Source of the DNA: Alphaproteobacteria bacterium
Lineage (GTDB): Bacteria > Pseudomonadota > Alphaproteobacteria > Bin95
Assembly (NCBI GenBank): GCA_963665325.3
Contig: CAXXWS020000003.1
Span: 960,001 to 1,024,000 of the forward strand
DNA length: 64,000 nucleotides
Reading direction: 5' to 3'
The position numbers and the translations under genes are program-made. Positions 41,137 to 63,944 of this stretch are shown here, in pieces; position 1 is the stretch's first letter, and the number at the start of each line of letters is the position of its first letter. A model generated the notes under the pieces. It ran no database searches, was not told the origin of the DNA, and was given only the letters and a program-made list of their open reading frames with translations.

Positions 41137-41382
41137 CTTGTGATAAGCTTATGTCACAGACTGTGATATTCTTGTGATATCCGAACGAGTTGGCCGCCGA
41201 AATCTTTTTGTGGCTTTCTTGTGTTAATTGTGATATTCTTATGATACAGCTTGGGCCGAATTCTCTTGTGATAAAATTATGCTTCTTGTTCTATTTTTAT
41301 GATGCTAACCATTGTGGGCCGCCAGCGCCCCAATGGGGCGGTGGCGTGCCGGAGGGGCAGCATATCATAAGAACATCATAAG
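41137..41382. repeat. AT-rich array of YTTRTGATR-like motifs (candidate protein-binding array, oriT-like)
   Basis: TGTGATA/TATGATR copies near 41139, 41162, 41173, 41229, 41240, 41267 and 41298; inverted copies at 41363 and 41374. Confidence 0.65.
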
Positions 41383-41456
41383 ATTTCGTCAGACCATTTC
41401 CGCTTCTCATCGCATTTCGGTGCGTGGCGATGAAGGCCCGGGGAGGCTGAGCCGGC

Positions 41457-42236: not shown

Positions 42237-42326
42237 ACCGGAGCGTCGGCTCGATTGCCCTCTCGCGGTTCGGCGGTCCGCCGACTTTCGGGCTCGCCGG
42301 AACGCTGCGGTCGTCTTTGCCCGGGT

Positions 42327-43664: not shown

Positions 43665-43679
43665 GCCGGGGACCGCAAG

Positions 43680-46160: not shown

Positions 46161-46248
46161 CCCCCCGAAACCGGCTCGGGCAGAATGCCATTCCGTCGCC
46201 GGTCTGTCTGCCTGGCCGGATGGCGGCATCCGGCCGTCGCGGGCCGGA

Positions 46249-49200: not shown

Positions 49201-50781
49201 CATCGACATCTCGTCGGCGACCAGGATGGTACCCTCGAAGCGTTTCCTGAGTTCCGCCAGCGCCCGGTCGTCGAGCAGGTTGTCGCCGGCATCGCGGTAG
49301 CGGGCGAGGAACCATTGCAGCGTGCGCACCGGGATGCCGGCCTCCCGGCCCAGCACGCCCGCCGCCACCGCCGACGGCGCCAGGCCGAACACGCGCCGGT
49401 CGCCCGCAAGCGCCGCCGCCTCCCTCAGCATGGTGGTCTTGCCCGTGCCGGCATAGCCCTGCACGCCCACCACGAGATCGTCATGCAGCAGAATGGTGCG
49501 CACCGCCTCTTTCTGCCCGTCGGTCAGCACCGATGCCGCCAGCCGGGCCTCGACCGGCTCTGCTTCGGTCAACGGTCCGCCTGCGCCCGCGCCTTCCCCG
49601 AGCAGCGCCAGCATGCCGCGCTCCGTCCTGACCGTCCGGTCGGTGACGAAGGCGCGCCCGCTCACCCCCCGGCGCACCGTCTCCAGCAGATGGCCGTCGC
49701 GCAGGAGCTGCGCGATCGCCTCGTCCACGTCCCGGATGGTGTAGCGGCCCGGCGAGTGGGCGAGGCAGCGCGTGACAAGGTCGTTGGCCGCAAACACCGA
49801 GCGGCGTTCCTCCAGATGCGCTGCGGCCCGGCAGGCGATCTCCAGCATCGAGAGCACGGGCGGCGGCTGCGTCCGCCGCTTGCGCGGCCTCGCGAGACCG
49901 AGTTCCTTCGCCCGCCCCCGCCAGAGCTCCTCCAGCGCCGCCCGGCCCGGCTCGTTCTTGCGCGCCCTGGTCGCCAGCGCCGCCTGCTGCGCCCGCGCCG
50001 CATTGTAGTTCCAGCCCTTCTCGCGGATATATTTCAGGATCGCCCGGCGCCGCTTGGAGAACACGAACACCTCGGCGCGCCTGTAGCCCGCAATCTCGAA
50101 GCTCGGCACCCCGCCCGCCATCGAGGGCGAGAGCGTATAGCCCCGCTCCATCAGCCGCCGCGCCAGCTCGTTGCGGTAAAAGGCTCCGATCGTCATCTCG
50201 GCCGACTTCAGCCGGCCCGTGTCGAGGCTCCGCCAGCGCCCCTCCGCGTCCTGCGTCATGTTGGCGACAACGGCATGCGTGTGCAGCTGCGGGTCCAGGT
50301 CCCGGCTCGCTATGTGCCGGAACGTCGCCGCCACCATCGAGGGCGAAGGCGCGCGCCGCATGCGCCTGAACTCCCGGTCCCACACGCGCGTCTCCAGCAG
50401 CCGCGCCTCGATGAAATCGAGTGTCGCCTTCACCGCCCCGTCATGCGCGCGCACCACGTCGTCACGGCCCCACAGCAGGCCCTCCAGCGAAACGGATTTC
50501 GGCGCCGAGAAGGTGATGTCGTGGCCGGGCTCGTGCTCCGTCTCGCCCTCGCGCGTCCGCCGCCCGAGGCGGATGTCCGTCTTCGGGACCTTCCCTTCCA
50601 GGATCGAGCGAAACCGTTTCGCGTCGACGCGGCCCTTCAGGCCCAGCGCCGCCGCGCCCGTCCCGTGCCAGCGGCTCGCCCGACGGTGCTCGGGATCGTT
50701 GCGCGCATAGTAGCCGCCCTCGCGCTCGAAATAGCGAACCGAGGCGGCCGCCGACCCCAGCCTGTTGACCTTGGCTACCAT
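46249..50781 (-). CDS. MOBF (TrwC/TraI-type) relaxase-helicase
   Basis: N-terminal YF..GGYY tyrosines, DITFSAPKSVS, H...RDLDPQLHTH, GYAGTGKT, DEMSM, GDRKQL, TVHAAQG, YVQISRAR. Confidence 0.95.
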   Translation of the reverse strand: MVAKVNRLGSAAASVRYFEREGGYYARNDPEHRRASRWHGTGAAALGLKGRVDAKRFRSILEGKVPKTDIRLGRRTREGETEHEPGHDITFSAPKSVSLEGLLWGRDDVVRAHDGAVKATLDFIEARLLETRVWDREFRRMRRAPSPSMVAATFRHIASRDLDPQLHTHAVVANMTQDAEGRWRSLDTGRLKSAEMTIGAFYRNELARRLMERGYTLSPSMAGGVPSFEIAGYRRAEVFVFSKRRRAILKYIREKGWNYNAARAQQAALATRARKNEPGRAALEELWRGRAKELGLARPRKRRTQPPPVLSMLEIACRAAAHLEERRSVFAANDLVTRCLAHSPGRYTIRDVDEAIAQLLRDGHLLETVRRGVSGRAFVTDRTVRTERGMLALLGEGAGAGGPLTEAEPVEARLAASVLTDGQKEAVRTILLHDDLVVGVQGYAGTGKTTMLREAAALAGDRRVFGLAPSAVAAGVLGREAGIPVRTLQWFLARYRDAGDNLLDDRALAELRKRFEGTILVADEMSMVSTAQAHALMKIAAKLGVGRLVLVGDRKQLRAVEAGQPFRQLQEAGMATALMDDIRRQRNPVLKGAVVHTAAGEPRRALDLLGENVVELPADELAETAARLWLELSPEERRETLLLAPTHELRRGIVEEVREGLEVEGVLHGRVLEIETLAKLRMTRAETGDIRNWSEGDVAVFHRDIYPFRIRAGDACTVTGFEGDRAVLEHPDGRTRRIRPAGEIRYRLDLHETQTISIRAGDCIRWTRNDRARGLDNGATAEILSIGPRKLRLLTEDGRELEWRHDDPQLRHILHAWASTVHAAQGMTRDRVIAVADAGHGHLGGLQSFYVQISRARDNAVVLTDDRESLAAALEADSGERLTALEALGEDIALPEEETAVRAPLRVPAKQPLAPVLKPEAQEETVRAEMADALAPAQDAERRFEAWRASKARHDGEAAEAGVFPALHAGHDGLLAELWTLAEVEDAAPETRAAVEAALADMDAGRVSACLQELRQRLEARGTLLPGAERSRTVDRPGYAEWRRELESAATAARAVLADDGPPALPGDDGRKELKTMLSRADLRLSSDDELFRARTADARVRDWHGRWTKAMERVDEPGGAEEPDRLAGLARPIMDDPDLGNLNRRHVEIRLADWKARGEAETAGAAWLAAWNGDGEEERAERSEDTLGKGRSLSADPAMPPALRQDLLDALRAHDGVEAERAEREARRNRAREAATAARREADDIAFRLRTGNWTREADEMNGLLASGERLTGSRDLSGTERRRLEEALGRERERRATALLQAVRTLDPADPWPHALLSRAEAVARDPKLGEEHRTRLDTAVDNARKRAAAHDDFEKWRLDWDAFRGPVEAKGLVAFADRGCGPLVERARKLSRNPHIGAAAKKELDGNVHDHDIAWPLAVRRYGELLAQWKEIREEAKTRRIGRFDIIAGANIIEDMRELATSLHLSQTQKQTFLNIAAERDAHIERLRRHRQQERTLSRDIDQGRSM

Positions 50782-50852
50782 GTGCTTCTACCGGAACCCG
50801 GCATACCCGATCGCCGGGGCCGGCGCTACCGCGAAGCAGGGGGAAGGGGTCC

Positions 50853-51467
50853 ATGACGGAACGCGACGAGGACAGGCGGATCGAGGAAGAACTCCAGCGC
50901 CGCGAGCGGCCCGCCGGGCAGCCGCAGGCCCCGGAACCCGCCAGGACGCCGGCAGCGCCGGGGCGGCAGGCGGGGACCGGGGGCAGCCCCGCGCCGCAAC
51001 CGCCCGATGTCGAGGCCCTGTTCCTCAGGCTGGAAGCCCAGCTCGACGAGATGGAGGGCCGTGTGGCCGCCGGTATCGATGCCGTGGCGGAACAGGTCGC
51101 CCCGGTGCCGGGCGCGGCGGCGGACCTCGCCGAATGGGTCCGGCGCGCGACGGCCAGGGGCGAGGCCGTCGACCGCCTGACGCCCCTGCTGGAGGAATCC
51201 GTCGACCGCGAGAACCGCCTCCACCGCCCCGCCCGAAGGCGCGCCAGGGCGGCGGGGTTCGTCCTGGCGCTCGCGCTCACGGCCGCAGTCGTCCTGTTCG
51301 TCCAGTGGCGCTTCGCCGTCATCGAGACCGCCGACCCCACGGACGGATGGCGCGGCCTTCTCTGGGAACGCTACGGAGCCGAACTGCGCGGCTGCGTCCT
51401 CCGCGCCGAACAGCAGGGCAAGGCCATGCTCTGCCAGGTCTTCGACCCCGAGCCCGCCCTACCGTAG
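50853..51467 (+). CDS. Relaxase-associated hypothetical membrane protein (reminiscent of DUF6118)
   Basis: Divergent from the relaxase; coiled coil, single TM helix, C-terminal ADP..W...C......C pattern. Confidence 0.5.
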   Translation: MTERDEDRRIEEELQRRERPAGQPQAPEPARTPAAPGRQAGTGGSPAPQPPDVEALFLRLEAQLDEMEGRVAAGIDAVAEQVAPVPGAAADLAEWVRRATARGEAVDRLTPLLEESVDRENRLHRPARRRARAAGFVLALALTAAVVLFVQWRFAVIETADPTDGWRGLLWERYGAELRGCVLRAEQQGKAMLCQVFDPEPALP

Positions 51468-52385
51468 CGCCCCACGATCCGGATGCGGCCGCGGAACCGG
51501 CGGCAACGGCGCGGTCCCGGCATAGCGGCCCTCCCGGTAAAGCCGGCCCTCCGCCGGCCCCTCCGGGTGACGAATGACCGTCACGCCGTCGAGCGCGCCG
51601 TCCTCGTACATCGCCTCCACCCGCCGCCCGTCCGGCCACGCGATCCGCCACAGCCCGTGCCGCCTGTCCTCGCGGTAGATGCCCGTCTCCGAATAGCCGT
51701 CCGGCCAGCGATGCGCCCATCGTCCGACCTGCTTTCCGTTGACCTGCCGGCCCTCGTCGACCCGCCCGCCGGCGTAGATATGCTTCCAGCGGCCGGTCGC
51801 CTTGCCGTGAACGAACGCGCCGTCGATCCGCGCGCCGCTGCGGTAATCGAAAACCCACACTCCATGCTTCATGCCCTTGCGGAACTCGCCGCGGCTTACA
51901 TCCCCGTCCGGCTTTTCGACCGTCCAGATCCCGACCGTCTCGCCCTGCTCGTAGCGCCCGCTCAACCGCTCGCCGTTCGGGATCGCGATGGTCCAGAAAC
52001 CCTGCTCCCCGCCAGGCCCGAACGACCCCTCCCGGCGTGTGCCGTCGACCTGCTCCAGCACCCACCCTCCCTGGCGCAGCCCGGCCGTGAACCGTCCCGT
52101 CTGCCGGTTGCCCTCCCGGTCCTCCAGAGCGCCCTCGCCCTCGGCCAGACCCTCCCGGCATGCCCCCGACCAGGTGAACGGCGCCTTGCCCCAGCGCGCG
52201 AACCGGCTCCGGAAATGGCAACCCGCGATGTTCTCCACCGGCGTCAGGCAGCCGGCCCCCGCAGGCGCTCCCGCATCTGTGCAGAGCGGCAAAGGCTCCG
52301 CGGCGCGCGCCATGCCGATCCAGACAAAAAGCGCCGAAACCGCCAGCAGCGCCGGAACGGCAGTTCGGAGGCTTCCATGGATCAT
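51459..52385 (-). CDS. Secreted MORN-like repeat protein
   Basis: Signal peptide, WSGACREGLAEGEG, about eight G.(F/Y)..G...G.W repeats. Confidence 0.75.
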   Translation of the reverse strand: MIHGSLRTAVPALLAVSALFVWIGMARAAEPLPLCTDAGAPAGAGCLTPVENIAGCHFRSRFARWGKAPFTWSGACREGLAEGEGALEDREGNRQTGRFTAGLRQGGWVLEQVDGTRREGSFGPGGEQGFWTIAIPNGERLSGRYEQGETVGIWTVEKPDGDVSRGEFRKGMKHGVWVFDYRSGARIDGAFVHGKATGRWKHIYAGGRVDEGRQVNGKQVGRWAHRWPDGYSETGIYREDRRHGLWRIAWPDGRRVEAMYEDGALDGVTVIRHPEGPAEGRLYREGRYAGTAPLPPVPRPHPDRGALR

Positions 52386-52837
52386 CGGGGCAAGGTTGCG
52401 TTCGGGCGCGGCGCTATGGTTCGGGACGACAGCGTAGCGGGGCCGGGCGACCCATGCGAGCGCCCGCTCGGCATGGCGCGCAGGCCGGAACCGGACAGGC
52501 ATGCGCCGTTTCCGGCCGTCGCCAGGCGGACAATGCACAAGAGAGGCAAACCCGGCGAGTTGCGTTGAGCGTCGGTTCGAACCAGCTCGCGCTCCCGGTT
52601 CACCACTCGGCCAGCTTTGAAGGGAGGCTCGACGGCTCGCTCTCAGTGAGTATCGAGCACAATCGGGCCGACTAGCGTGCTCGACGCTCGTTGAGATCGG
52701 ACGCGGCAAGTTAAGGGTATAAGCCCCCTAGATTAGGTGCTGACCGGCGTCGAAGCGGCGCGCAACGCAATACCATTTCCGCATGGAGGTGGGGCGCCCG
52801 CACCGTGCGCATCGTGCATACAGCTACAATATCTTGG

Positions 52838-53761
52838 TCATGATTCGTCCCCTCGGTCGACCCCATTGGCGAAATACGCGAGGGCCTTCTGGAGATGGTC
52901 AGCCATTGCGTTTCCGGCTACGGTAGGTACGCGTTCTGCCGGAGCGACCAAGCAGAGTCGCAGCTCGGACATCCGCTTTCCTTCCAAGGGAACTGCGATC
53001 AGGCTCCCGTCTGCCAATGCTTCGGAGAACTCCAGCTTTGTAGAAAATGCAATCCCGGCACCTTGCAGTAGAAGGCGCTTGACCATCGCCCGGGTGTTGG
53101 AGACCGCTGCTGGCTTGTGCACCCTCCTGAATGCTTCCATCTCATTACCGACAACCAGCTCCATCGTGTCGACAGGGTCCTGGTAGATCAGACGGTGGGT
53201 GCCGCACTCCTCAAGACTGACGGAGGCGCGCGACGCAAGTTCGTGGTCCGGCCTCATAACGGCGCACATCGGACAATCGATGCGCTTGAGTACGGTGATG
53301 CCACGGCGGCAGACCGGGGAGAACGTCAAGCCGAGATCCGCGGTGCCCTGGCAGACAGAGTGCATGGCTTCAATCGAATCGCAGGCGGACACGCGGACCT
53401 GAGCCTTCGGATGCAGAGCAACGAATTGCGCTATCGCTTCGGGCAGAAACTGCACAGTGGGGTTGTCCAAGGTCGCAATACTCACGCCGCCGCTCACGAT
53501 GCCGCGCAGGTTGTCAATATCGCCGCGCAGCCGCGCGAAGTCGTGCAGCGTATCCCGTGCGTGGCGCAGCACCAACTTGCCTGCCTCGGTCAGCCGCATG
53601 CCCTCCGGGTGCCGTTCGAACAACAGCACGCCGAACTGATCCTCCAGCTTCAGGATTTGGCGGTTCACAGCCGACGCCGAAATATGAACCCTTTCCGACG
53701 CACGGCGGATCGACCCGTCCTCGGCCACCGCTTCGAAATAACGCAACACTGCTGCATGCAT
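52838..53761 (-). CDS. LysR-family transcriptional regulator
   Basis: LRYF..VA..GSIRRA..HISASAVNRQILKLE..G..LFER. Confidence 0.95.
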   Translation of the reverse strand: MHAAVLRYFEAVAEDGSIRRASERVHISASAVNRQILKLEDQFGVLLFERHPEGMRLTEAGKLVLRHARDTLHDFARLRGDIDNLRGIVSGGVSIATLDNPTVQFLPEAIAQFVALHPKAQVRVSACDSIEAMHSVCQGTADLGLTFSPVCRRGITVLKRIDCPMCAVMRPDHELASRASVSLEECGTHRLIYQDPVDTMELVVGNEMEAFRRVHKPAAVSNTRAMVKRLLLQGAGIAFSTKLEFSEALADGSLIAVPLEGKRMSELRLCLVAPAERVPTVAGNAMADHLQKALAYFANGVDRGDES

Positions 53762-53767
53762 CCTGCG

Positions 53768-54397
53768 TCAGCCCCCGTTGTCTTTGCTTGCAATGCCCGC
53801 AACTCTTTCAACCAACCAGTGGTATTCTTGAGGGCTGCGATTCAGCAAATGTCTAGTGGCTGCAATGCGATCTGTCAATCCCTTCTCCTGAGACATTTTC
53901 ACCCGACCCTCAATATCGTCGACGACAATTGTCACGCGACGGATCAAAGTTGACAACTGCCGAACTCGATTTTCAGTCTTGTCAAAAGTCCATCCCGCTA
54001 TGGCAGGCTCCAGTTGCCGTGTGAGGTGTTCGATATCCTCGAGAATTTCTGACCCTGGATTCTCGATCCTTGCGTGTCCCGTTACATGAACAGAAATATA
54101 ATTCCAGGTTGGCAACTGCCGCGTCGCGTACACAGTAGGGGAGACGTATGCATTGGGGCCAGAAAACACGACATAAACCGGACTCCCCTCCAATAACTCA
54201 ATTTGAGGATTAGATTGGTCCATATGTCCGAGGAGTTTCACCACTCCCGAACATTCACTGCTTACAATAAGCGGAATATGGCTAGCGGCGAACTCCTTGC
54301 CACTCCAAGTGACAATGAGGCCCAAGGGAAAGGCTTGTATGATCGACACCAAACAGTCCAAGTCTTCTTCTCGGTACACGTCGTAATGATAAGCCAC
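53768..54397 (-). CDS. PaiB-family heme protein, piperazate synthase (KtzT/PzbB)-like
   Basis: SHIPL, GHMDQSNPQ, FSGPNAYVSPTVY, PTWNY, KMSQE. Confidence 0.75.
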   Translation of the reverse strand: MAYHYDVYREEDLDCLVSIIQAFPLGLIVTWSGKEFAASHIPLIVSSECSGVVKLLGHMDQSNPQIELLEGSPVYVVFSGPNAYVSPTVYATRQLPTWNYISVHVTGHARIENPGSEILEDIEHLTRQLEPAIAGWTFDKTENRVRQLSTLIRRVTIVVDDIEGRVKMSQEKGLTDRIAATRHLLNRSPQEYHWLVERVAGIASKDNGG

Positions 54398-54585
54398 CTA
54401 CTTCCACCCTCTTCGTTGCTACGTTTTCCGACTAATCCGGCTCTCATGCTCAGACCTCAATTCTCAACTAACCTCGCCATTCCTTGACCATAATGTTAGT
54501 CCTCCTTCGAATCCAATAGATCGCAGCGGCCCTCGTCTCCCAGCCGATCCATAATACAGTTCAGCCCGGGCTTGACACTTTTCTT

Positions 54586-55605
54586 CTAGTCAGTGCAATA
54601 TCCCATAACCTCCTTATACAACCAATCTGGAACACACACACCATTTTCCCGAGTATAGTTTCTTACCGCATAACGTCTATCGGAGGGCAAGCGCGTCCCC
54701 TCTTCTTCCAGGATCTTCTCAAACAGCGACTCCGCATGCTGGAGATTGACAGAACCATCGTACGAATCTCCGAAGTGGGCCGGGTCCATCGCAATAATCA
54801 ATTCACCTCCTTCCGACGGCCCGCCATCGCTGTCATCGTCCTGGGCCGACTCGAAGCCGAACTTGCCTCCGCTGAGCCCAACCGCCAATAGCTCCACCAT
54901 CATTGCAATAGCGGCGCCCTTGTAGCCGCCGAAGGGCAACTGCGCACCTTCGAGGGCGGCGCCCGGGTCCGTCGTCGGCCGGCCATTGGCGTCAATGGCC
55001 CAGCCCTCCGGAACTCGTGCCCCATCGCGTTCCCGAATTTGAATTTCACCGCGCGCCGCGACGCTGGAAGACTGGTCGAAGATCATTGGCGCCTTGTCAG
55101 GCCGCGGCCACCCGAACGCCATGGGATTTGTCCCAAAAACTTTGTTGGTACCTCCCGCTGCGGCGACGAAGGAGCGAGAGTTCACGAACGCAAATGCTAC
55201 CAACCCCTCGCAAACTAGCGTATCGATATCGTACCACAGCACTCCGGACTGATATGCATTCGTGATCGGCATTGCCGCGACCCCTTGAGATCGTGCCTTG
55301 GCAGCCAAGAGCGGCCGCCCGACTACCATCGCCGCAGCTGCAAAGCCACGATGGGCGTCCACCTGGACAACGCCGGGAGACTTGTCATGCAATGTCGGCA
55401 CGGCTTTCCCGTTTGCGCGCCCACTTTTGACACAGGCGCAGTAGCCTGGCATCCTGAAAAGACCGTGCGTCTTGCAGCCATCCTGCTCCGCCAAGGTCAT
55501 TACATCGGCGAGCACGATGGCGTTCTCCTCGGAGAGGCCGGATTTGGTCAGTCCGCGCATGGCGATATCGCGAACCTCGTCGAGCGTCAGACTTACGCTA
55601 GTCAC
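54586..55605 (-). CDS. Ldh_2-family oxidoreductase (DpkA-like cyclic imine reductase/sulfolactate dehydrogenase family)
   Basis: THGLFRMPGY, FGTNPMAF, LPFGGYKG, RLPSDRRY. Confidence 0.88.
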   Translation of the reverse strand: MTSVSLTLDEVRDIAMRGLTKSGLSEENAIVLADVMTLAEQDGCKTHGLFRMPGYCACVKSGRANGKAVPTLHDKSPGVVQVDAHRGFAAAAMVVGRPLLAAKARSQGVAAMPITNAYQSGVLWYDIDTLVCEGLVAFAFVNSRSFVAAAGGTNKVFGTNPMAFGWPRPDKAPMIFDQSSSVAARGEIQIRERDGARVPEGWAIDANGRPTTDPGAALEGAQLPFGGYKGAAIAMMVELLAVGLSGGKFGFESAQDDDSDGGPSEGGELIIAMDPAHFGDSYDGSVNLQHAESLFEKILEEEGTRLPSDRRYAVRNYTRENGVCVPDWLYKEVMGYCTD

Positions 55606-55644
55606 TGCATTCTCTCCAATGGGTAGCGGGGTGCGGAATCCTGC

Positions 55645-56529
55645 CTAGCGTGGGCTAGTCTCTAATCTGCGGTTGAACGACTTGCCCGGTTTCGGTTTTG
55701 CATTTGCTGTCGGCTCGTCAATCAGATTTTGAAACTGGGAAGGCTTATAGTGGGTTGCATAGATCATGACACCGACAAAAGTAAGCCCACCTACGAGATT
55801 GCCGATCAAGGTCGGAATCTCATTCCAGAGGAGGTAATCCACCCAAGTGTAACTGCCGCCGAGCATGATACCAGAAGGGAAAAGGTACATGTTTACAATG
55901 GAGTGTTCGAAACCAAGATAGAAGAAAATTAAAATTGGCATCCACATGCCGATTACTTTTCCGGAAACGGACGTAGACATCATCGCGGCGACAACACCTG
56001 TCGAAACCATCCAGTTGCACATGATAGCCCGAACAAACAGGGTCAACATTCCCGCGTAGTCGGCGTCGGCGTATCCAAGCGTACGCATTTCCCCGATCCT
56101 ACCAATTTTCTGACCTACTGCATTCGGGTCTTTGCTGAACCCCATCGTGAATACAACTGCCATCAAGGACGCAGTTGTGAGCGCTCCAGCGAGGTTTCCG
56201 AGGAAGACCAATGTCCAATTTCGTAGTAGCTTGGGAAAGGTTACACCGGGACGACGTGCAAAGAGAGCAAGTGGCACCAACGTAAACACGCCTGTCAACA
56301 AATCATAACCCAGAAGATAGATCATACAGAACCCAACCGGGAAGAGCAGAGATCCGAGTAAGAAACTACCAGTGTCAACCGCAATCGTTATGGCAAATGC
56401 CGCAGCTAGAGCTAAAATCGCACCGGCCATATATGCTCTGATAAGGGTATCCTTGGTCGACATAAATGCCTTGGATTCACCTGCCTCGATCATTCTTGTG
56501 GCAATTTCCCGGGGCGTGACATAGGACAT
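55645..56529 (-). CDS. Formate/nitrite transporter (FNT) family
   Basis: LFPVGF, DLLTG, GNLAG, CNWMV, GFEHSIVNM, GNLVGG. Confidence 0.93.
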   Translation of the reverse strand: MSYVTPREIATRMIEAGESKAFMSTKDTLIRAYMAGAILALAAAFAITIAVDTGSFLLGSLLFPVGFCMIYLLGYDLLTGVFTLVPLALFARRPGVTFPKLLRNWTLVFLGNLAGALTTASLMAVVFTMGFSKDPNAVGQKIGRIGEMRTLGYADADYAGMLTLFVRAIMCNWMVSTGVVAAMMSTSVSGKVIGMWMPILIFFYLGFEHSIVNMYLFPSGIMLGGSYTWVDYLLWNEIPTLIGNLVGGLTFVGVMIYATHYKPSQFQNLIDEPTANAKPKPGKSFNRRLETSPR

Positions 56530-56657
56530 GGGGAGTGCTTCTCCAATTAAAGCAAGGCGGCACTTGCTTCCTGTGTTCGTGGTAGCCGGCTGGCCATTGA
56601 AAGGCGGATGTTCTGAAGTTTGCGCCGGGAACCGGCATTGCTTCGCACCTCGGCAAG

Positions 56658-57860
56658 TTATCGGCGGGCTCGATAAGAAAGGTACGCTGCGCTCAATGCG
56701 AGGGCGGCCGCAGCAAGCTGGAAAGCGTGGTTGATTCCGTTTACTTGAGATACCAGGAGCGCAACTAGCACTGATGGCACCACCGGGCCGGTCAGTTGTC
56801 CGATCGCGAAAGCGGCAGTCATATAACCCAGTACCTCGGTCGCGCGTCCCCGTGCGCGCGACCGCACTTCCTGTAGCGCGACTGTGGTCGTGACCATGAA
56901 AGTGCCGCCCACGAATAGCGCGGTAATTGCGATCGAGGTTGGCGTCAGCCAGATGCTCGGCATGAGAACGCCGAGCGCCATGATGAGGTGGGTGACGGCC
57001 CACACGCGCAGGCGGTTCATCCGCTTGAGTACGCGTGCGGCTACGATAGTGGAAACTAGGGATGCCAACCCGAACAATGGCCAAGCGAGGCCGAATATTC
57101 GCGGCTCATCAACAATGTTGCGGGCAAGCGTGGGAAGGAATGTGGCTGGCAGGATATAGCCGAGCCCCATGACCCCATAGCAGACTACGAGACCTGCAGT
57201 GCTGCTACCGGGTCCAGTTGAAGCGCCTACCCCCCGGAGGGCGCCGGTGGAGGGAACCCGGGGACCTCTACTCAGCAATAGCGACGGCACGATGGCGACC
57301 GCCGCCAAGGCTCCCAGCCCGAGCCAAAGCCATTGCGTCGAGACGCCCGGGCCGGCGGCAACGACACAGTAGAGGCCTACTGTCGCAATGCCGAGGCCGG
57401 TGCCGCCATAGATCACTCCGGCGAGGTCCGAGCGTTGCGCCGACGCCAACCGATCCAACGCCCACGCGCTGGTCAGGACAAAAGCCCAAGCGCTAAAGAC
57501 ACCCGCCGCGAACCGCAAGACAAGCCATGCCGCCATATCCAGGCTGTCGGAGCCCCCCATGGCAGTTGTGACGGCAACGATAGCGGCCAGACTGCCGCGC
57601 AGCAGAATCTGCGGCTTGACGCGAACCCAGCTCACCGTTAGCGCGCCGAGCACGTAGCCGAAGTAATTGCTACCGGCCAACCATGCGCCGGCGTTCAGGT
57701 CAAGCAGGTCATCCCGGATCATGAGGGGCAACAGGGGCGTGAACGCGAATCGGCCAATACCCATCGAGACTGCGACCTCTACCATTGCAAGAAGGCAGAC
57801 GGCAGCAGCAGTACGCGTTCCCAAGCGCGTCTGTCGGATAAAATCCAGGTTTATGCGCAT
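56658..57860 (-). CDS. MFS transporter (YbfB/YjiJ-like)
   Basis: MGIGRFAFTPLLP, NYFGY, GLGYILPATFLP, GGTFM. Confidence 0.9.
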   Translation of the reverse strand: MRINLDFIRQTRLGTRTAAAVCLLAMVEVAVSMGIGRFAFTPLLPLMIRDDLLDLNAGAWLAGSNYFGYVLGALTVSWVRVKPQILLRGSLAAIVAVTTAMGGSDSLDMAAWLVLRFAAGVFSAWAFVLTSAWALDRLASAQRSDLAGVIYGGTGLGIATVGLYCVVAAGPGVSTQWLWLGLGALAAVAIVPSLLLSRGPRVPSTGALRGVGASTGPGSSTAGLVVCYGVMGLGYILPATFLPTLARNIVDEPRIFGLAWPLFGLASLVSTIVAARVLKRMNRLRVWAVTHLIMALGVLMPSIWLTPTSIAITALFVGGTFMVTTTVALQEVRSRARGRATEVLGYMTAAFAIGQLTGPVVPSVLVALLVSQVNGINHAFQLAAAALALSAAYLSYRARR

Positions 57861-57917
57861 GTTTACTCGGCCTCGGACCAACGTTTCACACACCACCGAT
57901 TCGGCTCTTCACGAAAT

Positions 57918-59636
57918 TCAGGCCACCCCGGCTCCTTGGTCCTTCAGGATCGTCGCGAACTTGGTGCGCAATTCGCGCTTGAGCACTTTCCCTGTGACCC
58001 CGACCGGGAAATTCTGCGGCTCCAACGCCACTTGGACGGCTGCCAGAGGCTCGAGGCCGGCCGTCGAGAGTTGCTCGTTAAAGTACGCGAGCAACCGATG
58101 TTCCGATGGAACCTCTGGGCCTTTCCGGGGACGGATGATGGCAATCGGCTTTTGTCCGAAGCCATTATGGCTCGGGACGCCGACGACGGCGCAATCGTGA
58201 ACGATGTCCCCGCAGTCGGCCAACAGCACTTCTTCGATCAGCAAGCTGTAGACCGCCTCGAACGCGCCATCTATGACATCGACTGTGCGATCCAGGTGAT
58301 AGAAGCGGCCGTCTTCGTCCCGGCGGGCCACATCCCCCGTCAACCAGTATCCGCCAAGCTCGAACCTCCCGGTCAGCTCCCGGTCGTTCCAATATCCCGG
58401 CGTAAGGCTCGGTGTCTTGAGAGCTAGCAGGCCCGGTGCTCCGACAGGCAGCTCCGCTCCGGTTTCGTCAACGACCGTGGCGTGCTCGACCACGCCGATA
58501 GGCACTCCGATACAGCGATCGTTTCGTTCGGTCTCCATCGTGAACAGCTGCCCGAACAGGGACAGCCCCAGTTCCGACGAGCCGAAGCCGTCGATGAACT
58601 GGGAACCCGGCTGCGCCGCATCGCCCGCGTCGCCCTCTGTAAGCAGCGCCGGCTTTATCAGGCCGGCCGGCCGCTGGCCCATCGTGACGAGCCGCCGGAT
58701 ATGCCCATAGTGCGCGCTGTCCCCCATGTTGATCCAGGTATGGACCGAGGCGCAGGCCTCGGCGGGCAACGGATCGGCCGACAGTTCGACAAAAGTGCGT
58801 GGGAATGACAGCACGATTGTCGGCTCGAATACCATCATGACGGGCTCGACGACCACGCGCCGCCAATCCGACATGACGACTGTCGGCAAGCCCATGAGAA
58901 CCGCCGTCATGAAGTAGCTCAGCCCGCCCGCGTGTGTATGCGGCACGAGTGACATCAAGCGGTCGTACGGCTCTGCGGGCAAACGGATTAACCGGGGCTC
59001 CTTCCCAATCCAGAACTGCTTGTGGCCGGCCATGGTGGGCTTCGGCACTCCCGTCGTGCCGGACGAGTGGACGAGTGCAACGATGTCGTCTTCCTCGTGC
59101 AACACGGGAAATGGCGATGGCAGCGCTCCCTGTTCCTGGTGCGCGTTTAACTCCGACAGTGCCGAAATGAATCGCGGCCGGTAACGCTGTCTGCTGCGAA
59201 ATGCGGCCTTGAAGCCCGTCGGGTCGTCACACACCAGCCCAACCGCGCCCACATTCTCCAGATAGCTGCACGCCGCGGCGAGAGGCATGGCATTGTTGAT
59301 CAGGCCACAGATGGCGCCCAAGGCGGAGACCGCCAGGCACTGGAGCATCGGGTCGACGCCTTCGCTGACATACACCCCGACAACGTCGCCCTTCCGGACG
59401 CCATTGGCGTGGTACCATCGGGCATACCGGTCGCGCACGGCCACGAGGTCATCGAGGCTATACCCCGTCAGGTCGACACGGCCATGAGAGTCGAATCGGT
59501 GCCTGAAAATGAACGGCACGCTACGGTTCGGATTGAGCCGGACCGCCCAATCCAGAAAGTTCCCCGTGCCGAGAGCGGGTTCCTCCACCAACTGGCGTCG
59601 AACTTCGATCGGCGCAATCGAGCTATGCTGTGCCAT
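57918..59636 (-). CDS. Stand-alone class I adenylate-forming (ANL) ligase
   Basis: HSSGTTGVPK, GFGSSE, TGD, LDR, PVGVTGKVLKR. Confidence 0.9.
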   Translation of the reverse strand: MAQHSSIAPIEVRRQLVEEPALGTGNFLDWAVRLNPNRSVPFIFRHRFDSHGRVDLTGYSLDDLVAVRDRYARWYHANGVRKGDVVGVYVSEGVDPMLQCLAVSALGAICGLINNAMPLAAACSYLENVGAVGLVCDDPTGFKAAFRSRQRYRPRFISALSELNAHQEQGALPSPFPVLHEEDDIVALVHSSGTTGVPKPTMAGHKQFWIGKEPRLIRLPAEPYDRLMSLVPHTHAGGLSYFMTAVLMGLPTVVMSDWRRVVVEPVMMVFEPTIVLSFPRTFVELSADPLPAEACASVHTWINMGDSAHYGHIRRLVTMGQRPAGLIKPALLTEGDAGDAAQPGSQFIDGFGSSELGLSLFGQLFTMETERNDRCIGVPIGVVEHATVVDETGAELPVGAPGLLALKTPSLTPGYWNDRELTGRFELGGYWLTGDVARRDEDGRFYHLDRTVDVIDGAFEAVYSLLIEEVLLADCGDIVHDCAVVGVPSHNGFGQKPIAIIRPRKGPEVPSEHRLLAYFNEQLSTAGLEPLAAVQVALEPQNFPVGVTGKVLKRELRTKFATILKDQGAGVA

Positions 59637-59670
59637 AGCGCTCTCTCCTCTTTGGTCGGGATTGTCCGCC

Positions 59671-60948
59671 TCAGGCGGCCGGACTTAACTGTCTTCTCGA
59701 AAGCTCGCCGGTGACAGCTTCAGCAATTCGGGAAAGGCCATCCGACAGCGCCGCCTCCGTGATCGTCAGGGGCGGCATAACCTTCAGGACCTCGTCCCGC
59801 GCGCCGCATAACTCCACGATCACCCCGGCGCGATATGCGCGTTCGGCCGCCCCTTTCGCCATGCTCGGGTCGTTGGGCCACGCCAGCCCCTGCAGCATGC
59901 CCTTGCCACGGACCTCCGCATCACCGGCCTGGACCGCGACCTCCGATAACCGCGACCGGATCAGGGCGCCCTTTTGGTGCACGCTGGCTTCGAAGTCGGG
60001 ATTCCGCCAAAAACGTAACGCTTCAGCGCCGGCGACAAACGCCAGGTTGTTTCCGCGAAACGTACCATTGTGCTGCCCCGGTTCCCACACGTCCACTTCC
60101 GGCCGGATCAACAGCATCGCCATGGGCAAGCCAAAACCGCTGATCGACTTCGCCAAGCATACAATGTCGGGCTCGAGGTCAGCGCGTTCGAAGCTGAAGA
60201 ACGGTCCGGTTCGGCCGCAACCGGTCTGGATCTCGTCGACGATCAGCAACGCCCCTTGCTTTCTCGCCAACGCCTGAAGGCGCTGAAGCCAGTCAACGCT
60301 CGCCTCGTTGAGCCCTCCTTCCGCCTGCAGTGTTTCGACTATGATTGCCGCAGGCGGGTCGATCCCACTGCCCGGGTCGTCCAACAGCGTCTCGACGTAC
60401 TCCAGCGTATCCACATTGGAACCCAAATAGCCATCGAAAGGCACCCGGTCCACTGCCGCGTACGGCACTCCCCCACCGCTTCGCTTCCGTCGCGCACCGG
60501 AAACGGCAAGCGCACCCAACGTCATCCCGTGAAAACTGTTCGTAAACGCCAGAATGTTCGTTCTTGATGTAACGCGTCGAGCCAGCTTCAAAGCTGCTTC
60601 GACAGCGTTCGTACCCGTGGGGCCGGTGAACTGCATCTTGTAGTCAAGTCCACGGGGCGAAAGAACTCCATCTTGCAGTTCCTGCATGAACTCTCGTTTT
60701 GCCTCCGTGTGCAGGTCCAGCGAATGCGTTATACCGTCCGTAATCATGTAGCCGACGATTTTGCTACGTATCTGCCGATTGTTATGTCCATAATTCAAAG
60801 CGCCTGCGCCCGACAGAAAATCCAAATAGGAAGTTCCGTCGACATCGATTAGAGTATGTCCGGTCGCCTTTTGAAAGAGCGCCGGAAAATCCCGACAGTA
60901 AGACCGAACCACCGATTCAAGTTGGTCGAAGATCACCGTGCCGTCCAT
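59671..60948 (-). CDS. ectB: Diaminobutyrate--2-oxoglutarate transaminase (EctB-like), without ectA/ectC
   Basis: ESVVRSYCR, DFLSGAGALNYGHN, GPTGTNAVEAALK, QAEGG, DEIQTGCGRTG, AKS, HNGTFRGNN. Confidence 0.9.
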   Translation of the reverse strand: MDGTVIFDQLESVVRSYCRDFPALFQKATGHTLIDVDGTSYLDFLSGAGALNYGHNNRQIRSKIVGYMITDGITHSLDLHTEAKREFMQELQDGVLSPRGLDYKMQFTGPTGTNAVEAALKLARRVTSRTNILAFTNSFHGMTLGALAVSGARRKRSGGGVPYAAVDRVPFDGYLGSNVDTLEYVETLLDDPGSGIDPPAAIIVETLQAEGGLNEASVDWLQRLQALARKQGALLIVDEIQTGCGRTGPFFSFERADLEPDIVCLAKSISGFGLPMAMLLIRPEVDVWEPGQHNGTFRGNNLAFVAGAEALRFWRNPDFEASVHQKGALIRSRLSEVAVQAGDAEVRGKGMLQGLAWPNDPSMAKGAAERAYRAGVIVELCGARDEVLKVMPPLTITEAALSDGLSRIAEAVTGELSRRQLSPAA

Positions 60949-61550
60949 TTGGGCCTCAGCCTCCCTTTTTTTCCCAGGTATGCTACCCAACTTTTCTGTT
61001 TGCGTAGCTGAACCATCATTTACCACTCATCCGGTCTTCGTCGAGCCACATCTTCGCGCTTCCAATCATGACCCGATGAACTTCATTCCCACAGTCTCTA
61101 GTGCGCCGTAGGCGTCTTCATCTCTACTTTCCAAGTGTGCTTATGGTCCGAAGTTGGCGTGAACGCCATAACCTTAATTGGCTCGCCCCCCTCCCTGCCG
61201 TCGACTTAATTGCGACAACCTCCGCAGAGGCTCGATGATACTCGCCCGAACAGGCGGTTCCGAGCCCATCCATCCGCGAGCCTCATCGCTGCCCTCCTCG
61301 ACCCAAGTTCGACTGGCCGTCGTGGGGAACCCGCCCAGGGGTCCGAACTATCTTGTCACGATGAACTCCCATCCCGTTGCGAAAAATGTAACGCTGTGAA
61401 GAGCGCTTTGTATTGCATTAGACCGGCCCAATGTGCTTCGATGGGCTTGGCGGGCTTCACGCAGGGGAAGCTCTGCTGTGCTGCAACATCAATTGGTGAA
61501 TGCCCGCCGGACTGCTAGTCGGCCGGCGTTGAAAACAGTGGGAGACGAAA

Positions 61551-62888
61551 TTGGAAGCTTCCTCAACACGGCCTATCTTCGATGTTGTGGGCATTGGTTT
61601 TGGACCGGCGAACATCGCGCTTGCTATTGCGCTCCAGGAGCGACGCGACCCGCTGTCGGTGTTGTTTTTGGAAAAATCCAGCGAACCCGGTTGGCAAGCC
61701 GCGATGTTGCTGGACGGTTCAGACATTCAAAACAGCGCTCTGCGCGACCTTGTCACCCCGCGCAATCCGAGAAGCCGATACTCGTTCACAAATTTCTTGT
61801 TTGAGCAGGGGCGACTATTCGAATATCTCAACCTGGGCCTCGAGTTCCCGCTGAGAAAGGAATACGCTCAGTATGTTTCATGGGTGGCTCGCCAGTTTGA
61901 CGGACAGGTTTGCTATCGAGAGGAAGTGCGGCATCTTAGTATAGCAGGCACAGGCGGATCCGCGTGCTTTTCCATAACCACAGCAGGAGGCAGGACCTTC
62001 TTAGCCCGAAGCCTAGTTGCCGCGCCCGGCCGTACGCCGCTTATTCCGGAGGTGTTTAGAGGAACGGAAGGCGAGCGAGTATTCCACTTCACGCAGTATG
62101 CTCCGATGTTGAAGAAGTTAAAGCTGGGGACGGGCGAAGGTAAGCGTGCCGGTGTCGTAGGAGGAAGTCAAAGTGCTGTGGAGATCATTCTCGACCTGGC
62201 GTCTCGGTATCCGGAGATCGAGATCGTTAATGTACAGCGAGGGTTCGGGTTTTCTCTGAAAGATACAAGCCCTTTTAGCGACCATGTGTATTTCCCGGAG
62301 CATGTTGACTATTATTTTAATGCATCACAGAAAAGCAAGGCAAGCATTGATGCCCAGTTGAGGCGCACAAATTACTCGTCTGCAGACGGAGATGTGATTC
62401 GCCAACTGTATCTCGCCATTTATGAACAGAAATTGGACGGAAGGGAGAGGATACAGGTATTGAACAATACAAAAGTTAGTGGGGTGAAGAAAGGAGAAGA
62501 CGGTCTTGTGATTCAGGTGGAGGAAATTCACCAGGGGCAACTCGCTTCGGTTGAGCTTGATTTTGCGGTACTCGCAACAGGATTCCGTAATCTTGGACCG
62601 GCGGAGAATCAAGAGTTAGTTCCGCCTTTGCTCCTGCCGGTTGAAGGCTACCTGAGCAAGAGCCCACAGGGAGTACTTGAAATATCTCGGGATTACAGGT
62701 TGCTCGCCGCGAATCCAGAAGACCCGTTGCCACCGCTGTACCTGAATGGATTGTGTGAAACAACACACGGAATGGGAGATGCAGGGTCCTTTAGTTTGTT
62801 GTCGCTTCGAAGCGAACTCATTGCCCGGTCCGTTAGTGATGCTCTGACTGATTGTTCGCTGGTAGGCTCCTCTCCTTTAGGCTCCTGA
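61551..62888 (+). CDS. Flavin-dependent amine N-hydroxylase (SidA/IucD/PvdA/KtzI family)
   Basis: GIGFGPANIALA FAD motif, DLVTPRNPRSRYSF, GGSQSAVE NADPH motif, TNYS, LATGF; TTG start. Confidence 0.93.
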   Translation: MEASSTRPIFDVVGIGFGPANIALAIALQERRDPLSVLFLEKSSEPGWQAAMLLDGSDIQNSALRDLVTPRNPRSRYSFTNFLFEQGRLFEYLNLGLEFPLRKEYAQYVSWVARQFDGQVCYREEVRHLSIAGTGGSACFSITTAGGRTFLARSLVAAPGRTPLIPEVFRGTEGERVFHFTQYAPMLKKLKLGTGEGKRAGVVGGSQSAVEIILDLASRYPEIEIVNVQRGFGFSLKDTSPFSDHVYFPEHVDYYFNASQKSKASIDAQLRRTNYSSADGDVIRQLYLAIYEQKLDGRERIQVLNNTKVSGVKKGEDGLVIQVEEIHQGQLASVELDFAVLATGFRNLGPAENQELVPPLLLPVEGYLSKSPQGVLEISRDYRLLAANPEDPLPPLYLNGLCETTHGMGDAGSFSLLSLRSELIARSVSDALTDCSLVGSSPLGS

Positions 62889-63541
62889 ATAACTGTCCTG
62901 GTTTTAAGGCACGAGAGCGGTAGCAGCTCGGTAGGAGGCGTAGGGGGGAGTCATCGGATCGTGTCGTCAGGGGCCGGCGATGGAACCAACAGAGCTAAGG
63001 TCGGAAGGCGGACGGGTGGCTCTGAGGGGCCCTGACAATGCGGGCGGGCTAGGTGGCCAGTTCCTGCTGGTGAGACCGCATTGGCGAGGTGGCGGTTATG
63101 ATCGGAGTGTTGCAATGAGGGAGAAGGAGTGGGCGCGATGTCAGGACAAGGGCAGGTTCTACTGGCGGCAAGCATTTGCTGTGCTCTCTCTGGCGCGTAC
63201 GTAGTCATCGCTAAAGTGGATACGAATGCAGGCTTCGTTGATAAAATGGGCGCATTAGCGGGACCTTATATCGCTGGCGGACTAGTCGGTTGGGTAACAC
63301 CCTTGGTACGGACCGAATCTGTGGACAATTCCCTACCATAGGTGACGTTGTCGTACACTTTTCCCGCCGAAGACGACGGGGCAGTGCAACAGAAGTTAGA
63401 CGGCTGTATGAATGAGGTAAATAGCCTAGGGGATTCGGTCTACGCGGTGTAGTCGAGCCGGTGGTGCCCAGGGGGCGATAGGCGGCACCGTTGTCGACAT
63501 GGAGGCGCTGTGGCAGGCCGCGCCGGATCGGCGCGTTCCTG

Positions 63542-63944
63542 AACGCCTATCGCATCGACCTCACCGGCGAGTCACAGCGAAAGCGCAACAAGCTGACCTC
63601 GCTCGAAGGCGGCAACAAGAAATGAGGGAGCCCCGGCCTGGCGGCCGGGGTCCAGCGGTGCCTGCGGCGCCGGACCCGGCCGCAACACCGTGCAAGCGCC
63701 CCGGCATGCCCTATGAAGGGGCTTGCCGGGGCGTAGGATACGCCTTTGCATGACAAACAGGGCTCGCTTACGCTCGCAACCGGCTGGCCTCCGGCCAGCC
63801 CCCTGAAACCACCAACGGAGACCCACAGACCCACACACCAAGACACGGGAGAGACCCAAAACCGGCGCCGCACCGGCCGTCAAATGGCCAGGAACCGCAG
63901 TCAAATAAAATAGGAATCCGCTGTCAAGTCCGCAGGAATGCGCA
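63542..63944 (+). mobile_element. IS21-family remnant (istB 3' end and right terminus)
   Basis: 63542-63625 reads NAYRIDLTGESQRKR..., the IstB C-terminal pattern; three GTCAA..AGGAA repeats at 63879-63944 ending GGAATGCGCA. Confidence 0.75.

Follow-up and report, generated by a model that had tools for sequence, protein, structure and literature searches.

Gene content of the block

We analyzed a stretch of 64,000 nt (the window) from an alphaproteobacterial genome of five contigs (5.58 Mb, GC 0.67-0.68, 100% complete), and within it a block at positions 52838-62888 that is a candidate gene cluster for a small exported compound with a nitrogen-nitrogen (N-N) bond. An earlier note, made from the letters of the window, had placed eight genes at 52.8-62.9 kb. 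The list of open reading frames, together with Pfam and NCBIfam profile searches, confirmed all eight, each intact and full length relative to its family models:

52838-53761, minus strand: LysR-family regulator (PF00126, 74.1 bits; PF03466, 105.3 bits)
53768-54397, minus strand: PF04299 protein of the PaiB/KtzT/NohD superfamily (PF04299, 125.2 bits)
54586-55605, minus strand: Ldh_2-family NAD(P)H oxidoreductase, apparently of the DpkA type (PF02615, 301.4 bits)
55645-56529, minus strand: anion channel of the formate/nitrite-transporter (FNT) family (PF01226, 217.4 bits; start re-set)
56658-57896, minus strand: MFS_4 (YbfB-like) transporter, the proposed exporter (PF06779, 223.3 bits)
57918-59636, minus strand: ANL-superfamily enzyme, placed by similarity in the nitrite-activating type Ib diazotase/N-nitrosylase clade (PF00501, 113.5 bits; AvaA6 model NF058622, 311.4 bits)
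59671-61026, minus strand: EctB-type diaminobutyrate--2-oxoglutarate transaminase (TIGR02407, 594.2 bits; NF006733, 617.4 bits)
61027-61550, no strand: divergent intergenic region between the EctB and N-hydroxylase genes, a presumed promoter region from the gene positions
61551-62888, plus strand: SidA/PvdA/KtzI-family flavin N-hydroxylase (PF13434, 286.8 bits)

The seven minus-strand genes are spaced by 6 to 188 bases, and the LysR gene closes this co-oriented run 6 bases past the PF04299 gene; its product did not reach the cut-off of any NCBIfam model. As listed, the FNT frame extends to 57084 and overlaps the MFS gene. Its start was set at 56529 because the FNT domain begins only at residue 193 of the listed frame and the ATG at 56529 is preceded by GGAGAA. 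No regulatory RNA was detected in the block (no Rfam match at E≤0.1), and scans of the block for consensus promoters and terminators returned sites at chance level. The lower GC content that had been remarked on was borne out: the block has values of 0.50-0.64, whereas GC is 0.71-0.74 at 46-52 kb and the replicons have 0.67-0.68. The composition of the block is mosaic, some genes having a GC of 0.50-0.53 and others of 0.62-0.64.

No non-ribosomal peptide synthetase (NRPS) was found among the families of the window, as had been claimed, and the family search of the cluster genes revealed no carrier protein, condensation domain or acceptor-forming gene. The search for an NRPS or siderophore synthetase outside the window was extended to the whole, complete genome: at E≤1e-10 it holds 0 condensation domains and 0 IucA/IucC genes, and each of these searches matched 2 of the 14 control genomes. 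On these counts, a siderophore or NRPS explanation of the genes was rejected.

Conservation of the gene set and its enzyme families

The earlier note had made its reading depend on co-occurrence of the genes in other genomes, which holds for part of the set. Those for EctB, the N-hydroxylase and the PF04299 protein (hereafter the triad) recur at three other distinct loci, with identities to the window proteins of 67-70%, 62% and 50-54%, respectively, whereas the MFS_4 and LysR genes, like the FNT gene, are confined to the window. The triad plus an exporter is present at all four loci, the exporter being MFS_4 in the window and elsewhere EamA or, in L023, an MFS domain. Two loci, L025 and L010 (an alphaproteobacterial metagenome-assembled genome), carry EctB (67-70%), the N-hydroxylase (62%), the PF04299 protein (50-51%), a DAO-type oxidase, an EamA exporter on the opposite strand, an ANL gene and an Ldh_2-family gene, with an AraC regulator a few genes further. 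Their ANL proteins are 77% identical to that of the window in L025, and 59-76% identical, with frame breaks, in L010. At L023, EctB is divergent from the N-hydroxylase, which is followed by PF04299 and then by DAO; no ANL or Ldh_2 gene was found within 10 kb. A PF02615-family dehydrogenase, belonging to one of two subfamilies, is thus present in 3/4 loci. The record L024 gave matches identical to those of L010, and both were counted as one locus.

When one genome per species was scanned by pattern for the ANL protein, 11 relatives emerged among 39 pattern matches, and L010 was the only one of the 11 with other cluster genes; a metagenome scan gave 3 relatives among 38 pattern matches, none with other cluster genes. 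The PF04299 protein had no match at E≤1e-35 in 400 sampled genomes of the phylum, and in one large genus of the same class a member of its clade was present in 3 of 401 genomes, one of which gave the record L024. A single open frame of 706 residues at L023 (8336-10453, minus strand) contains both a PF04299 domain (residues 37-196) and a complete MFS_1 domain (residues 281-644). Either the enzyme and the exporter are fused, or the draft genome is misassembled at this point.

EctB exceeds the equivalog cut-off of TIGR02407 (552.2 bits) and the cut-off of NF006733 (438 bits), and because the former is exceeded we assign it as a transaminase forming L-2,4-diaminobutyrate (DAB). The ectoine pathway was considered and rejected, as no ectA or ectC families occur among the neighboring genes. 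The N-hydroxylase, the sole PF13434 protein encoded in the whole genome, matched in the Protein Data Bank (PDB) a lysine N6-monooxygenase (5cqf, 9.3e-72), PvdA (1.1e-70), MbtG (1.6e-68) and KtzI (2.9e-60), and is proposed to be a DAB N4-hydroxylase. The closest PDB relative of the Ldh_2 protein is DpkA, a delta1-piperideine-2-carboxylate reductase (1wtj/2cwf/2cwh, E 2.3e-69; next match 5.1e-38), which makes it a candidate cyclic imino-acid reductase of this type.

The earlier note had credited the cluster with its own diamino-acid supply, a ligase and an exporter. The supply and the exporter stand; the "ANL ligase" is not a generic ligase, and its best NCBIfam model, its PDB matches and its nitrite site place it in the nitrite-activating Tri17/AvaA6/CmaA6 clade. 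The best model is AvaA6, 3-aminoavenalumate diazotase (NF058622, 311.4 bits), and the next, a generic acyl-CoA ligase, scores 152.3 bits. At E≤1e-20 the protein matched four PDB entries only, namely 9xb8 (1.6e-85), 8tf7/9bq0 (1.9e-72) and 8ztz (1.9e-71). Entries 8tf7 and 9bq0 are described as Tri17, an N-nitrosylase of the triacsin pathway that depends on ATP and nitrite (PMC11705231). The published nitrite site comprises H224/F267/K533 in CmaA6 and H236/F279/K527 in Mco01_40450, and any substitution in it is reported to nearly abolish diazotization in CmaA6 and to reduce it in Mco01_40450 (PMC12207350, PMC13674236). Because a constant offset of 16 puts the three published residues of each protein on His, Phe and Lys, 8ztz and 9xb8 were read as CmaA6 and Mco01_40450, which would make both of them nitrite-using diazotases. 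In the window protein, His235, Phe278 and Lys550 align with CmaA6 H224/F267/K533, and all three are invariant in 8/8 aligned homologues. The clade also has its own conserved loop (residues 322-332), and a Leu where the pocket of Mco01_40450 has Trp341.

A large protein collection gave 432 matches to the ANL protein at E≤1e-100 among 8000 candidates scored. Within the best 120 of these, the first five share 77-98% identity with it, including one that NCBI names as Bradyrhizobium algeriense; the rest are at most 63% identical, and those that are named come mostly from actinomycetes (Kitasatospora, Streptomyces, Streptosporangium and others). Plasmid relatives were found in 14 records, at 33-39.5% identity. 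The two that were inspected (Sinorhizobium and Klebsiella) adjoin 3-amino-4-hydroxybenzoate (3,4-AHBA) genes, and were rejected as instances of the same pathway. In these two, L013 (Sinorhizobium medicae plasmid) and L014 (Klebsiella michiganensis plasmid), an ANL protein 33-37% identical to that of the window is encoded beside a 3-dehydroquinate synthase II. L014 also holds a 2-amino-3,7-dideoxy-D-threo-hept-6-ulosonate synthase, so that the genes are of the 3,4-AHBA type seen in avenalumate-like diazotase clusters.

The PF04299 protein matched its family profile well above the cut-off (125.2 vs 22.4 bits), over profile positions 2-167 of 168. When it was aligned with LnzB, NohD and PaiB, the axial heme ligand (His58) and the Thr97/Lys167 dyad were found to be kept, and these are invariant in 17 aligned sequences. 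The LnzB pocket residues Tyr7, Tyr105, Glu188 and Leu165 are conserved as Tyr8, Tyr90, Glu171 and Leu148. The protein collection contained 23 PF04299 relatives at E≤1e-20. One of them (P0002) is the protein of the window itself, and thirteen more reach an identity of 50% or above. The majority are metagenomic, and one is named Bradyrhizobium prioriisuperbiae. The 17-sequence alignment consists of the query (P0001) and 16 of these 23 relatives, and leaves out P0002, P0006, P0015 (a 133-residue fragment), P0019-P0021 and P0024. Against the PDB (protein names of the entries from PMC12603108 and PMC13274692), the scores were nearly equal:

PaiB, which binds heme and makes no piperazate: 79.8 bits
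LnzB, piperazate synthase: 73.5 bits
NohD, dehydratase: 72.7 bits
SbPZS, piperazate synthase: 71.4 bits
KtzT, piperazate synthase: 69.7 bits
PipS, piperazate synthase: 63.2 bits

A proposed pathway and its alternatives

From these assignments, the probable product of the cluster is a small, nitrogen-rich derivative of an amino acid, exported from the cell and of a type not yet described. We tentatively read the block as an intact, horizontally acquired cluster for a small exported N-N-bonded derivative of DAB whose synthesis would need no NRPS, and give this reading a probability of about 0.45. The same tentative standing applies to the route that we propose, from DAB through N4-hydroxy-DAB and a heme-made five-membered cyclic hydrazine to ATP- and nitrite-dependent N-nitrosation and export. 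In this route, EctB, whose family is clear, would convert aspartate semialdehyde to DAB, and the SidA-type flavoenzyme would hydroxylate it at N4, as suggested by the conserved neighborhood and by Apy11, a published precedent for a DAB N4-hydroxylase (PMC11705231, PMC13755311). The PF04299 heme enzyme would then activate the hydroxylamine on its heme iron, as do KtzT, PipS and NohD; after loss of water, attack by the alpha-amine would most likely close the five-membered ring of pyrazolidine-3-carboxylate, a cyclic hydrazine. In vitro, a DAB-length substrate is reported to be accepted by piperazate synthases and converted to 5-membered alpha-hydrazino acids (PMC12150314). The DpkA-like reductase may interconvert the C=N and C-N forms of the ring (pyrazoline and pyrazolidine), which are aza-analogues of pyrroline-2-carboxylate and proline. 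The ANL enzyme, of the Tri17/AvaA6 type by family, would adenylate nitrite and nitrosate either a nitrogen of the ring or the hydroxylamine; the natural substrate of Tri17 is described as a hydrazone, and hydrazines are also accepted (PMC11705231). Nitrite could enter through the FNT channel or derive from nitrate respiration of the host, the MFS protein would export the product, and LysR would regulate the operon. Either an N-N-N(=O) or an N(OH)-N=O group would be expected in the product.

Two considerations point in this direction. Simple dehydration of N4-hydroxy-DAB would restore aspartate semialdehyde and undo the work of EctB, so that the conserved triad favors a non-hydrolytic outcome. 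Moreover, an ANL enzyme of the nitrite clade together with an FNT channel suggests an N-N chemistry that is probably richer than a piperazate-like cyclization alone. Of the small exported N-N heterocycle that the earlier note had proposed, the part resting on the conserved triad, the exporter and the lack of an NRPS stands; the signature of a piperazate synthase is absent, and a second, nitrite-type N-N family had been missed. The cluster is hence more interesting than first stated, having two N-N-forming families, and less certain, since its heme enzyme fails the piperazate-synthase signature.

Nitrite belongs to the metabolism of the host: NarG (2188.9 bits) and NirK (494.8 bits) are both encoded with scores above the cut-offs, so that nitrite is made and handled in the host. 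NapA and NirB had no match above the cut-offs in the genome, and the NirS profile search was uninformative, as it matched no control genome. The cluster FNT gene is the only one in the genome. Members of this family are known to carry formate, nitrite, hydrosulfide and lactate, and also bicarbonate. Because the adjacent ANL enzyme belongs to a nitrite-activating clade, we propose that the protein is best read as a nitrite channel.

A number of observations weigh against the proposed route, and the first of them concern the heme enzyme, which had been taken for a piperazate synthase of the KtzT/PzbB type. That assignment is not upheld. Higgins et al. mark the piperazate-synthase cluster by three sites, PipS Asn68, Ala105 and Tyr155 (PMC12576811), where the window protein has Asp60, Leu95 and Arg144. 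Of these, N68 (site HP2) lies two residues past the axial His and turns a heme propionate up, A105 (site AS2) is two residues ahead of the catalytic Thr (PMC12576811), and Y155, the equivalent of LnzB Y161 (site AS1), is a Tyr from the partner monomer that contacts the substrate carboxylate (PMC12576811; PMC12603108, PMC13274692). Asp60 and Leu95 are present in 16/17 sequences of the clade and, as read from the printed alignment, Arg144 in 14/17. In the published experiments with NohD, any N-N bond formation required a small residue at the Ala105 position (PMC12576811). PaiB is described as having the His/Thr/Lys set and yet making no piperazate (PMC12603108, PMC13274692), and since NohD has it too, the set is not diagnostic of synthase activity. 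Given the replaced signature residues, the small residue needed in NohD and the lack of piperazate formation by PaiB, ring closure by the PF04299 enzyme is only putative. Judged by its sequence, the protein is a member of a distinct conserved clade whose reaction is not readable from similarity. The Asp/Leu/Arg changes could suit a substrate one carbon shorter, in that its carboxylate would meet a longer partner, the pocket would be filled and an acid would lie close to the alpha-amine.

Further points on the same side concern the ANL enzyme and the channel. The ANL protein scores far under the AvaA6 equivalog cut-off (311.4 vs 975 bits), and for this reason it is a relative of AvaA6 and not an orthologue. 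In the CmaA6 paper the nitrite-site His and Lys are described as common to 4-chlorobenzoate-CoA ligase (PMC12207350). At three actinomycete loci with an ANL protein ~60% identical (L002, L006 and L009), the neighbors are flavin amine oxidases, KamA-like aminomutases, adenylation enzymes and polyketide synthases, and none of the other seven window genes is annotated there. A search of the three actinomycete genomes for Lyase_1 (CreD-type) gave one match, on a contig numbered like the record of L002 and, if the contig is the same, ~39 kb from the ANL locus; for the other two loci, L006 and L009 (2/3 genomes), the contigs whose numbers agree with their records had none. Neither these neighbors nor the Lyase_1 outcome supply context, and nitrite use by this ANL sub-clade is an assignment by homology and by the conserved site. 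Among solved relatives, the FNT protein is nearest to LCIA (104.9 bits) and FocA (68.7 bits), with NirC the weakest (24.5 bits), and with NCBIfam it scored 109.9 bits against the FocA model and 28.7 against the NirC model; its substrate is not settled by similarity. Finally, the loci differ: the FNT gene is found in one of the three ANL-bearing loci (that of the window), a DAO-type oxidase is encoded at every locus except that of the window, the Ldh_2 protein of L025 belongs to another subfamily than that of the window and is nearest to archaeal malate and sulfolactate dehydrogenases, not DpkA, and the ANL gene, found in 3/4 loci, is missing in L023. The triad of L023 would make nitrosation an optional tailoring step.

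The closest known systems cover parts of the proposed route. The piperazate cassette KtzI/KtzT (PipS, LnzB, SbPZS; EC 4.8.1.1) likewise pairs a SidA-family N-hydroxylase with a PF04299 heme protein, and the axial His, the Thr/Lys dyad and the pocket residues Tyr8, Tyr90, Glu171 and Leu148 (window numbering) are shared. It differs in being supplied with ornithine, whereas the window would supply DAB via EctB, and in having Asn68/Ala105/Tyr155 for Asp/Leu/Arg, the window protein being equidistant from PaiB, NohD and the synthases; moreover, the window lacks an NRPS to use the product and its host is an alphaproteobacterium. NohD, an N-hydroxylamine dehydratase of Actinomadura luzonensis, is a PF04299 protein with a bulky AS2 residue and an Arg at AS1, like that of the window. 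In the published account its cluster is without an N-hydroxylase, whereas a hydroxylase and an amine supply are conserved neighbors in the window, and its HP2 residue is Ala instead of Asp (PMC12576811). In actinopyridazinone biosynthesis (Apy11/Apy9), N4-hydroxylation of L-DAB is likewise the entry step to the N-N bond (PMC11705231, PMC13755311); there the bond is intermolecular and is made by a cupin/MetRS-like hydrazine synthetase, a gene not in the window cluster.

Tri17, AvaA6, CmaA6 and Mco01_40450 share with the window ANL enzyme the fold and the nitrite-site His/Phe/Lys, and are its only strong PDB matches. Tri17 is reported to act after Tri28 (PMC11705231), and the window enzyme would likewise follow another N-N-forming enzyme. 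The group differs from it in several respects: the window enzyme is under the AvaA6 cut-off, has loop 322-332 and a Leu for Trp341 of Mco01_40450, is accompanied by an FNT channel instead of CreE/CreD, and would act on an aliphatic DAB-derived amine, whereas the partner in the known cases is an aniline or an acyl hydrazone. No CreE/CreD nitrite-making genes were found among the window cluster genes or their flanks. A published survey of type I diazotases covers, in the text available, actinomycete proteins only, encoded within 40 kb of creE, and includes groups with almost no activity on anilines (PMC13674236).

The main rival explanation, which we consider unlikely, is that the cluster makes a homoalanosine-like diazeniumdiolate. 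The ANL enzyme would nitrosate N4-hydroxy-DAB directly, with nitrite and ATP, and 2-amino-4-(N-hydroxy-N-nitrosoamino)butanoate would be exported; with the same low probability, the PF04299 protein would be an accessory hydroxylamine dehydratase that clears surplus N-hydroxy-DAB, or have some other side role. Homoalanosine is a known natural product. The logic matches that of L-alanosine (ala/aln), in which a dedicated diamino-acid supply and an N-hydroxylase are combined with nitrite as donor of the distal nitrogen (bioRxiv 10.1101/763607). The ANL enzyme does belong to a nitrite-activating clade, an FNT gene is inside the cluster, and the PF04299 protein is NohD-like at two signature sites (bulky residue and Arg). 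The L-alanosine genes differ, however, in using L-2,3-diaminopropionate (L-Dap), a carrier protein, an adenylation (A) domain, a thioesterase and CreE/CreD, and in the portion of the report available they include no ANL nitrosylase and no KtzT homologue (bioRxiv 10.1101/763607). A diazeniumdiolate would leave the PF04299 and Ldh_2 genes without a real role, although the triad of EctB, N-hydroxylase and PF04299 is the most conserved part of the set (4/4 loci) and it is the ANL gene that is missing in L023. A dehydratase consuming a pathway intermediate would be futile, and N-nitrosation of a hydroxylamine by this ANL family was not found in the literature searched.

Still less probable is the version closest to the earlier note, according to which the pathway ends at or close to a cyclic hydrazino acid made by the N-hydroxylase and the PF04299 enzyme, the ANL enzyme acts as a common ligase that adenylates a carboxylate and forms an amide or a CoA ester, and the FNT channel is unrelated or carries formate or bicarbonate. 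L023, with the triad, an MFS domain and DAO and no ANL, implies that a product made without an ANL step exists; the His and Lys of the ANL site are general to ANL enzymes, and the nearest solved relatives of the channel are LCIA and FocA. This version is opposed by the ANL matches at E≤1e-20, which are all PDB entries of the diazotase/nitrosylase type, by the invariance of the Phe that forms the 'steric wall' of the nitrite site, and by the lack of a carrier protein, a condensation domain and an acceptor-forming gene.

A variant in which the ANL enzyme adenylates formate, supplied by a FocA-like FNT channel, and N-formylates N4-hydroxy-DAB to give a hydroxamate metal chelator is very improbable. 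Formate is akin to nitrite in shape and charge, the FNT protein scores better with FocA than with NirC (109.9 vs 28.7 bits in NCBIfam and 68.7 vs 24.5 bits among solved relatives), and the N-hydroxylase family is typical of hydroxamate siderophores. Formate use by this ANL clade was not found in the literature searched, the PF04299 and Ldh_2 genes would be without a role, and there are no siderophore receptor or uptake genes in the cluster and no NRPS or NRPS-independent siderophore (NIS) synthetase in the genome. Rhizobactin-type NIS gene sets combine the DAB transaminase RhbA with the N-hydroxylase RhbE, and so resemble the window in having an EctB-like transaminase beside a SidA-family N-hydroxylase in an alphaproteobacterium. 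They differ from the window cluster, which is without a DAB decarboxylase, an acyltransferase or IucA/IucC, the last being absent genome-wide.

To return to the proposed route, its most far-reaching form is that a new PF04299 clade makes the first natural five-membered piperazate analogue (pyrazolidine- or pyrazoline-3-carboxylate) from N4-hydroxy-DAB, and that a proteobacterial Tri17-type enzyme N-nitrosates this cyclic hydrazine or hydrazone with nitrite entering through the FNT channel, yielding a cyclic N-nitrosohydrazine or triazene-type amino acid. We hold this to be doubtful. If true, a three-nitrogen chain would be built from one amino acid and environmental nitrite, and this would be the first such pathway outside actinomycetes, with no need for aspartate-nitrosuccinate genes and with transfer from strain to strain on a mobile element. 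The combination of genes had not been recognized when the window was first read, and a literature search, whose coverage lacks most subscription journals and supplements, likewise found no cluster with both enzyme families and no natural five-membered piperazate analogue. In reviews of 2024 and 2026, as far as their text was available, heme piperazate synthases and ATP/nitrite-dependent N-nitrosylases are treated as separate pathways, mostly of actinomycetes (PMC11705231, PMC13755311). Enzymes that join two nitrogens are few, and are wanted as catalysts and as markers for genome mining. With eight genes and no NRPS, and with both families plus the supply, an anion channel, an exporter and a regulator, the cluster should be easy to express and test. 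It would give natural substrates to the PF04299 clade and to the large clade of diazotase-like ANL enzymes (432 proteins at E≤1e-100), and would tie denitrification-derived nitrite to secondary metabolism in an alphaproteobacterium of plant or soil type. We conclude from the gene content that the cluster is a strong lead for genome mining.

The probable mobile island

The earlier note had claimed an island, and this holds; the cluster appears to be horizontally acquired cargo of a mobile one: a relaxase lies on one side and two integrases on the other, and the ANL gene was found in 0/40 related genomes (16 of the same genus, 8 of the same family and 16 of the same class). Up to ~39.5 kb the window contains housekeeping genes (dnaK, dnaJ, rho, and those for histidinol dehydrogenase and methylmalonyl-CoA mutase). 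These are followed by genes without a family match, a McrBC component, a TrwC/MobF relaxase and then the cluster. Beyond the end of the window lie a gene of the endonuclease/exonuclease/phosphatase family, two tyrosine integrases (5-7.5 kb beyond the end; locus L001, 8111-10408), and then FtsK and other core genes. The feature that stands outside the pathway and marks the island is:

46249-50781, minus strand: TrwC/MobF relaxase-helicase (PF08751, 249.1 bits; MobF model NF041492, 257.6 bits, cut-off 100)

The stretch from 39.5 kb to the integrases showed no type IV secretion genes, no tRNA and no direct repeat of at least 16 bases were found at the two island ends, and no repeats flank the cluster block. 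The element, whose ends are provisional, looks mobilizable and not self-transmissible. A megablast search with the 11-kb block gave no match among 72,556 plasmid records.

Public sequencing runs fit a cargo that can move. Of the words sampled from the cluster, a fraction of at least 0.84 is present in each of nine runs, which come from three studies and bear two organism labels; no RNA runs are among the listed public holders. One run has a contig of exactly 11,215 letters that covers 52357-63571 with 10 differences. In run X10, which bears a third organism label, a contig of 14,222 letters links 50332 to 63543 with 6,621 other letters between them, which points to the same island backbone with different cargo; the contig pieces listed for this run cover only 53525-59560 of the window cluster.

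That the genes are silent or decaying cargo, or catabolic or detoxifying genes without a dedicated product, seems highly improbable. The mosaic composition (GC 0.50-0.53 vs 0.62-0.64 among the genes) would fit such a history, as would a relative whose ANL protein is 98% identical and whose PF04299 protein is 87% identical, if one contig carries both. All eight reading frames are nevertheless intact and full length, near-identical copies occur in 9 runs of 3 studies, and the gene set is kept at 50-77% protein identity in another genus. For both proteins (P0026 for ANL and P0003 for PF04299), the longest contig on record measures 21,467 bases, and if they share this one contig, the cluster is a mosaic.

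Several other frames accompany the cluster on the island. The McrBC restriction component (42330-43679, minus strand) lies just ahead of the relaxase, adjoined by a frame of 1101 residues (43680-46985, minus strand). Frames at 39747-41153, 41379-42326 and 51462-52727 (all minus strand) and at 50769-51464 (plus strand) had no Pfam match; the first of these has a third-position GC of 0.66, below that of its neighbors. The left half of the window has, dispersed amid the housekeeping genes, a gene with an AbiEii-type toxin domain and two with a PIN domain (13253-14251, plus strand; 20103-20609, minus strand; 23941-24384, plus strand).

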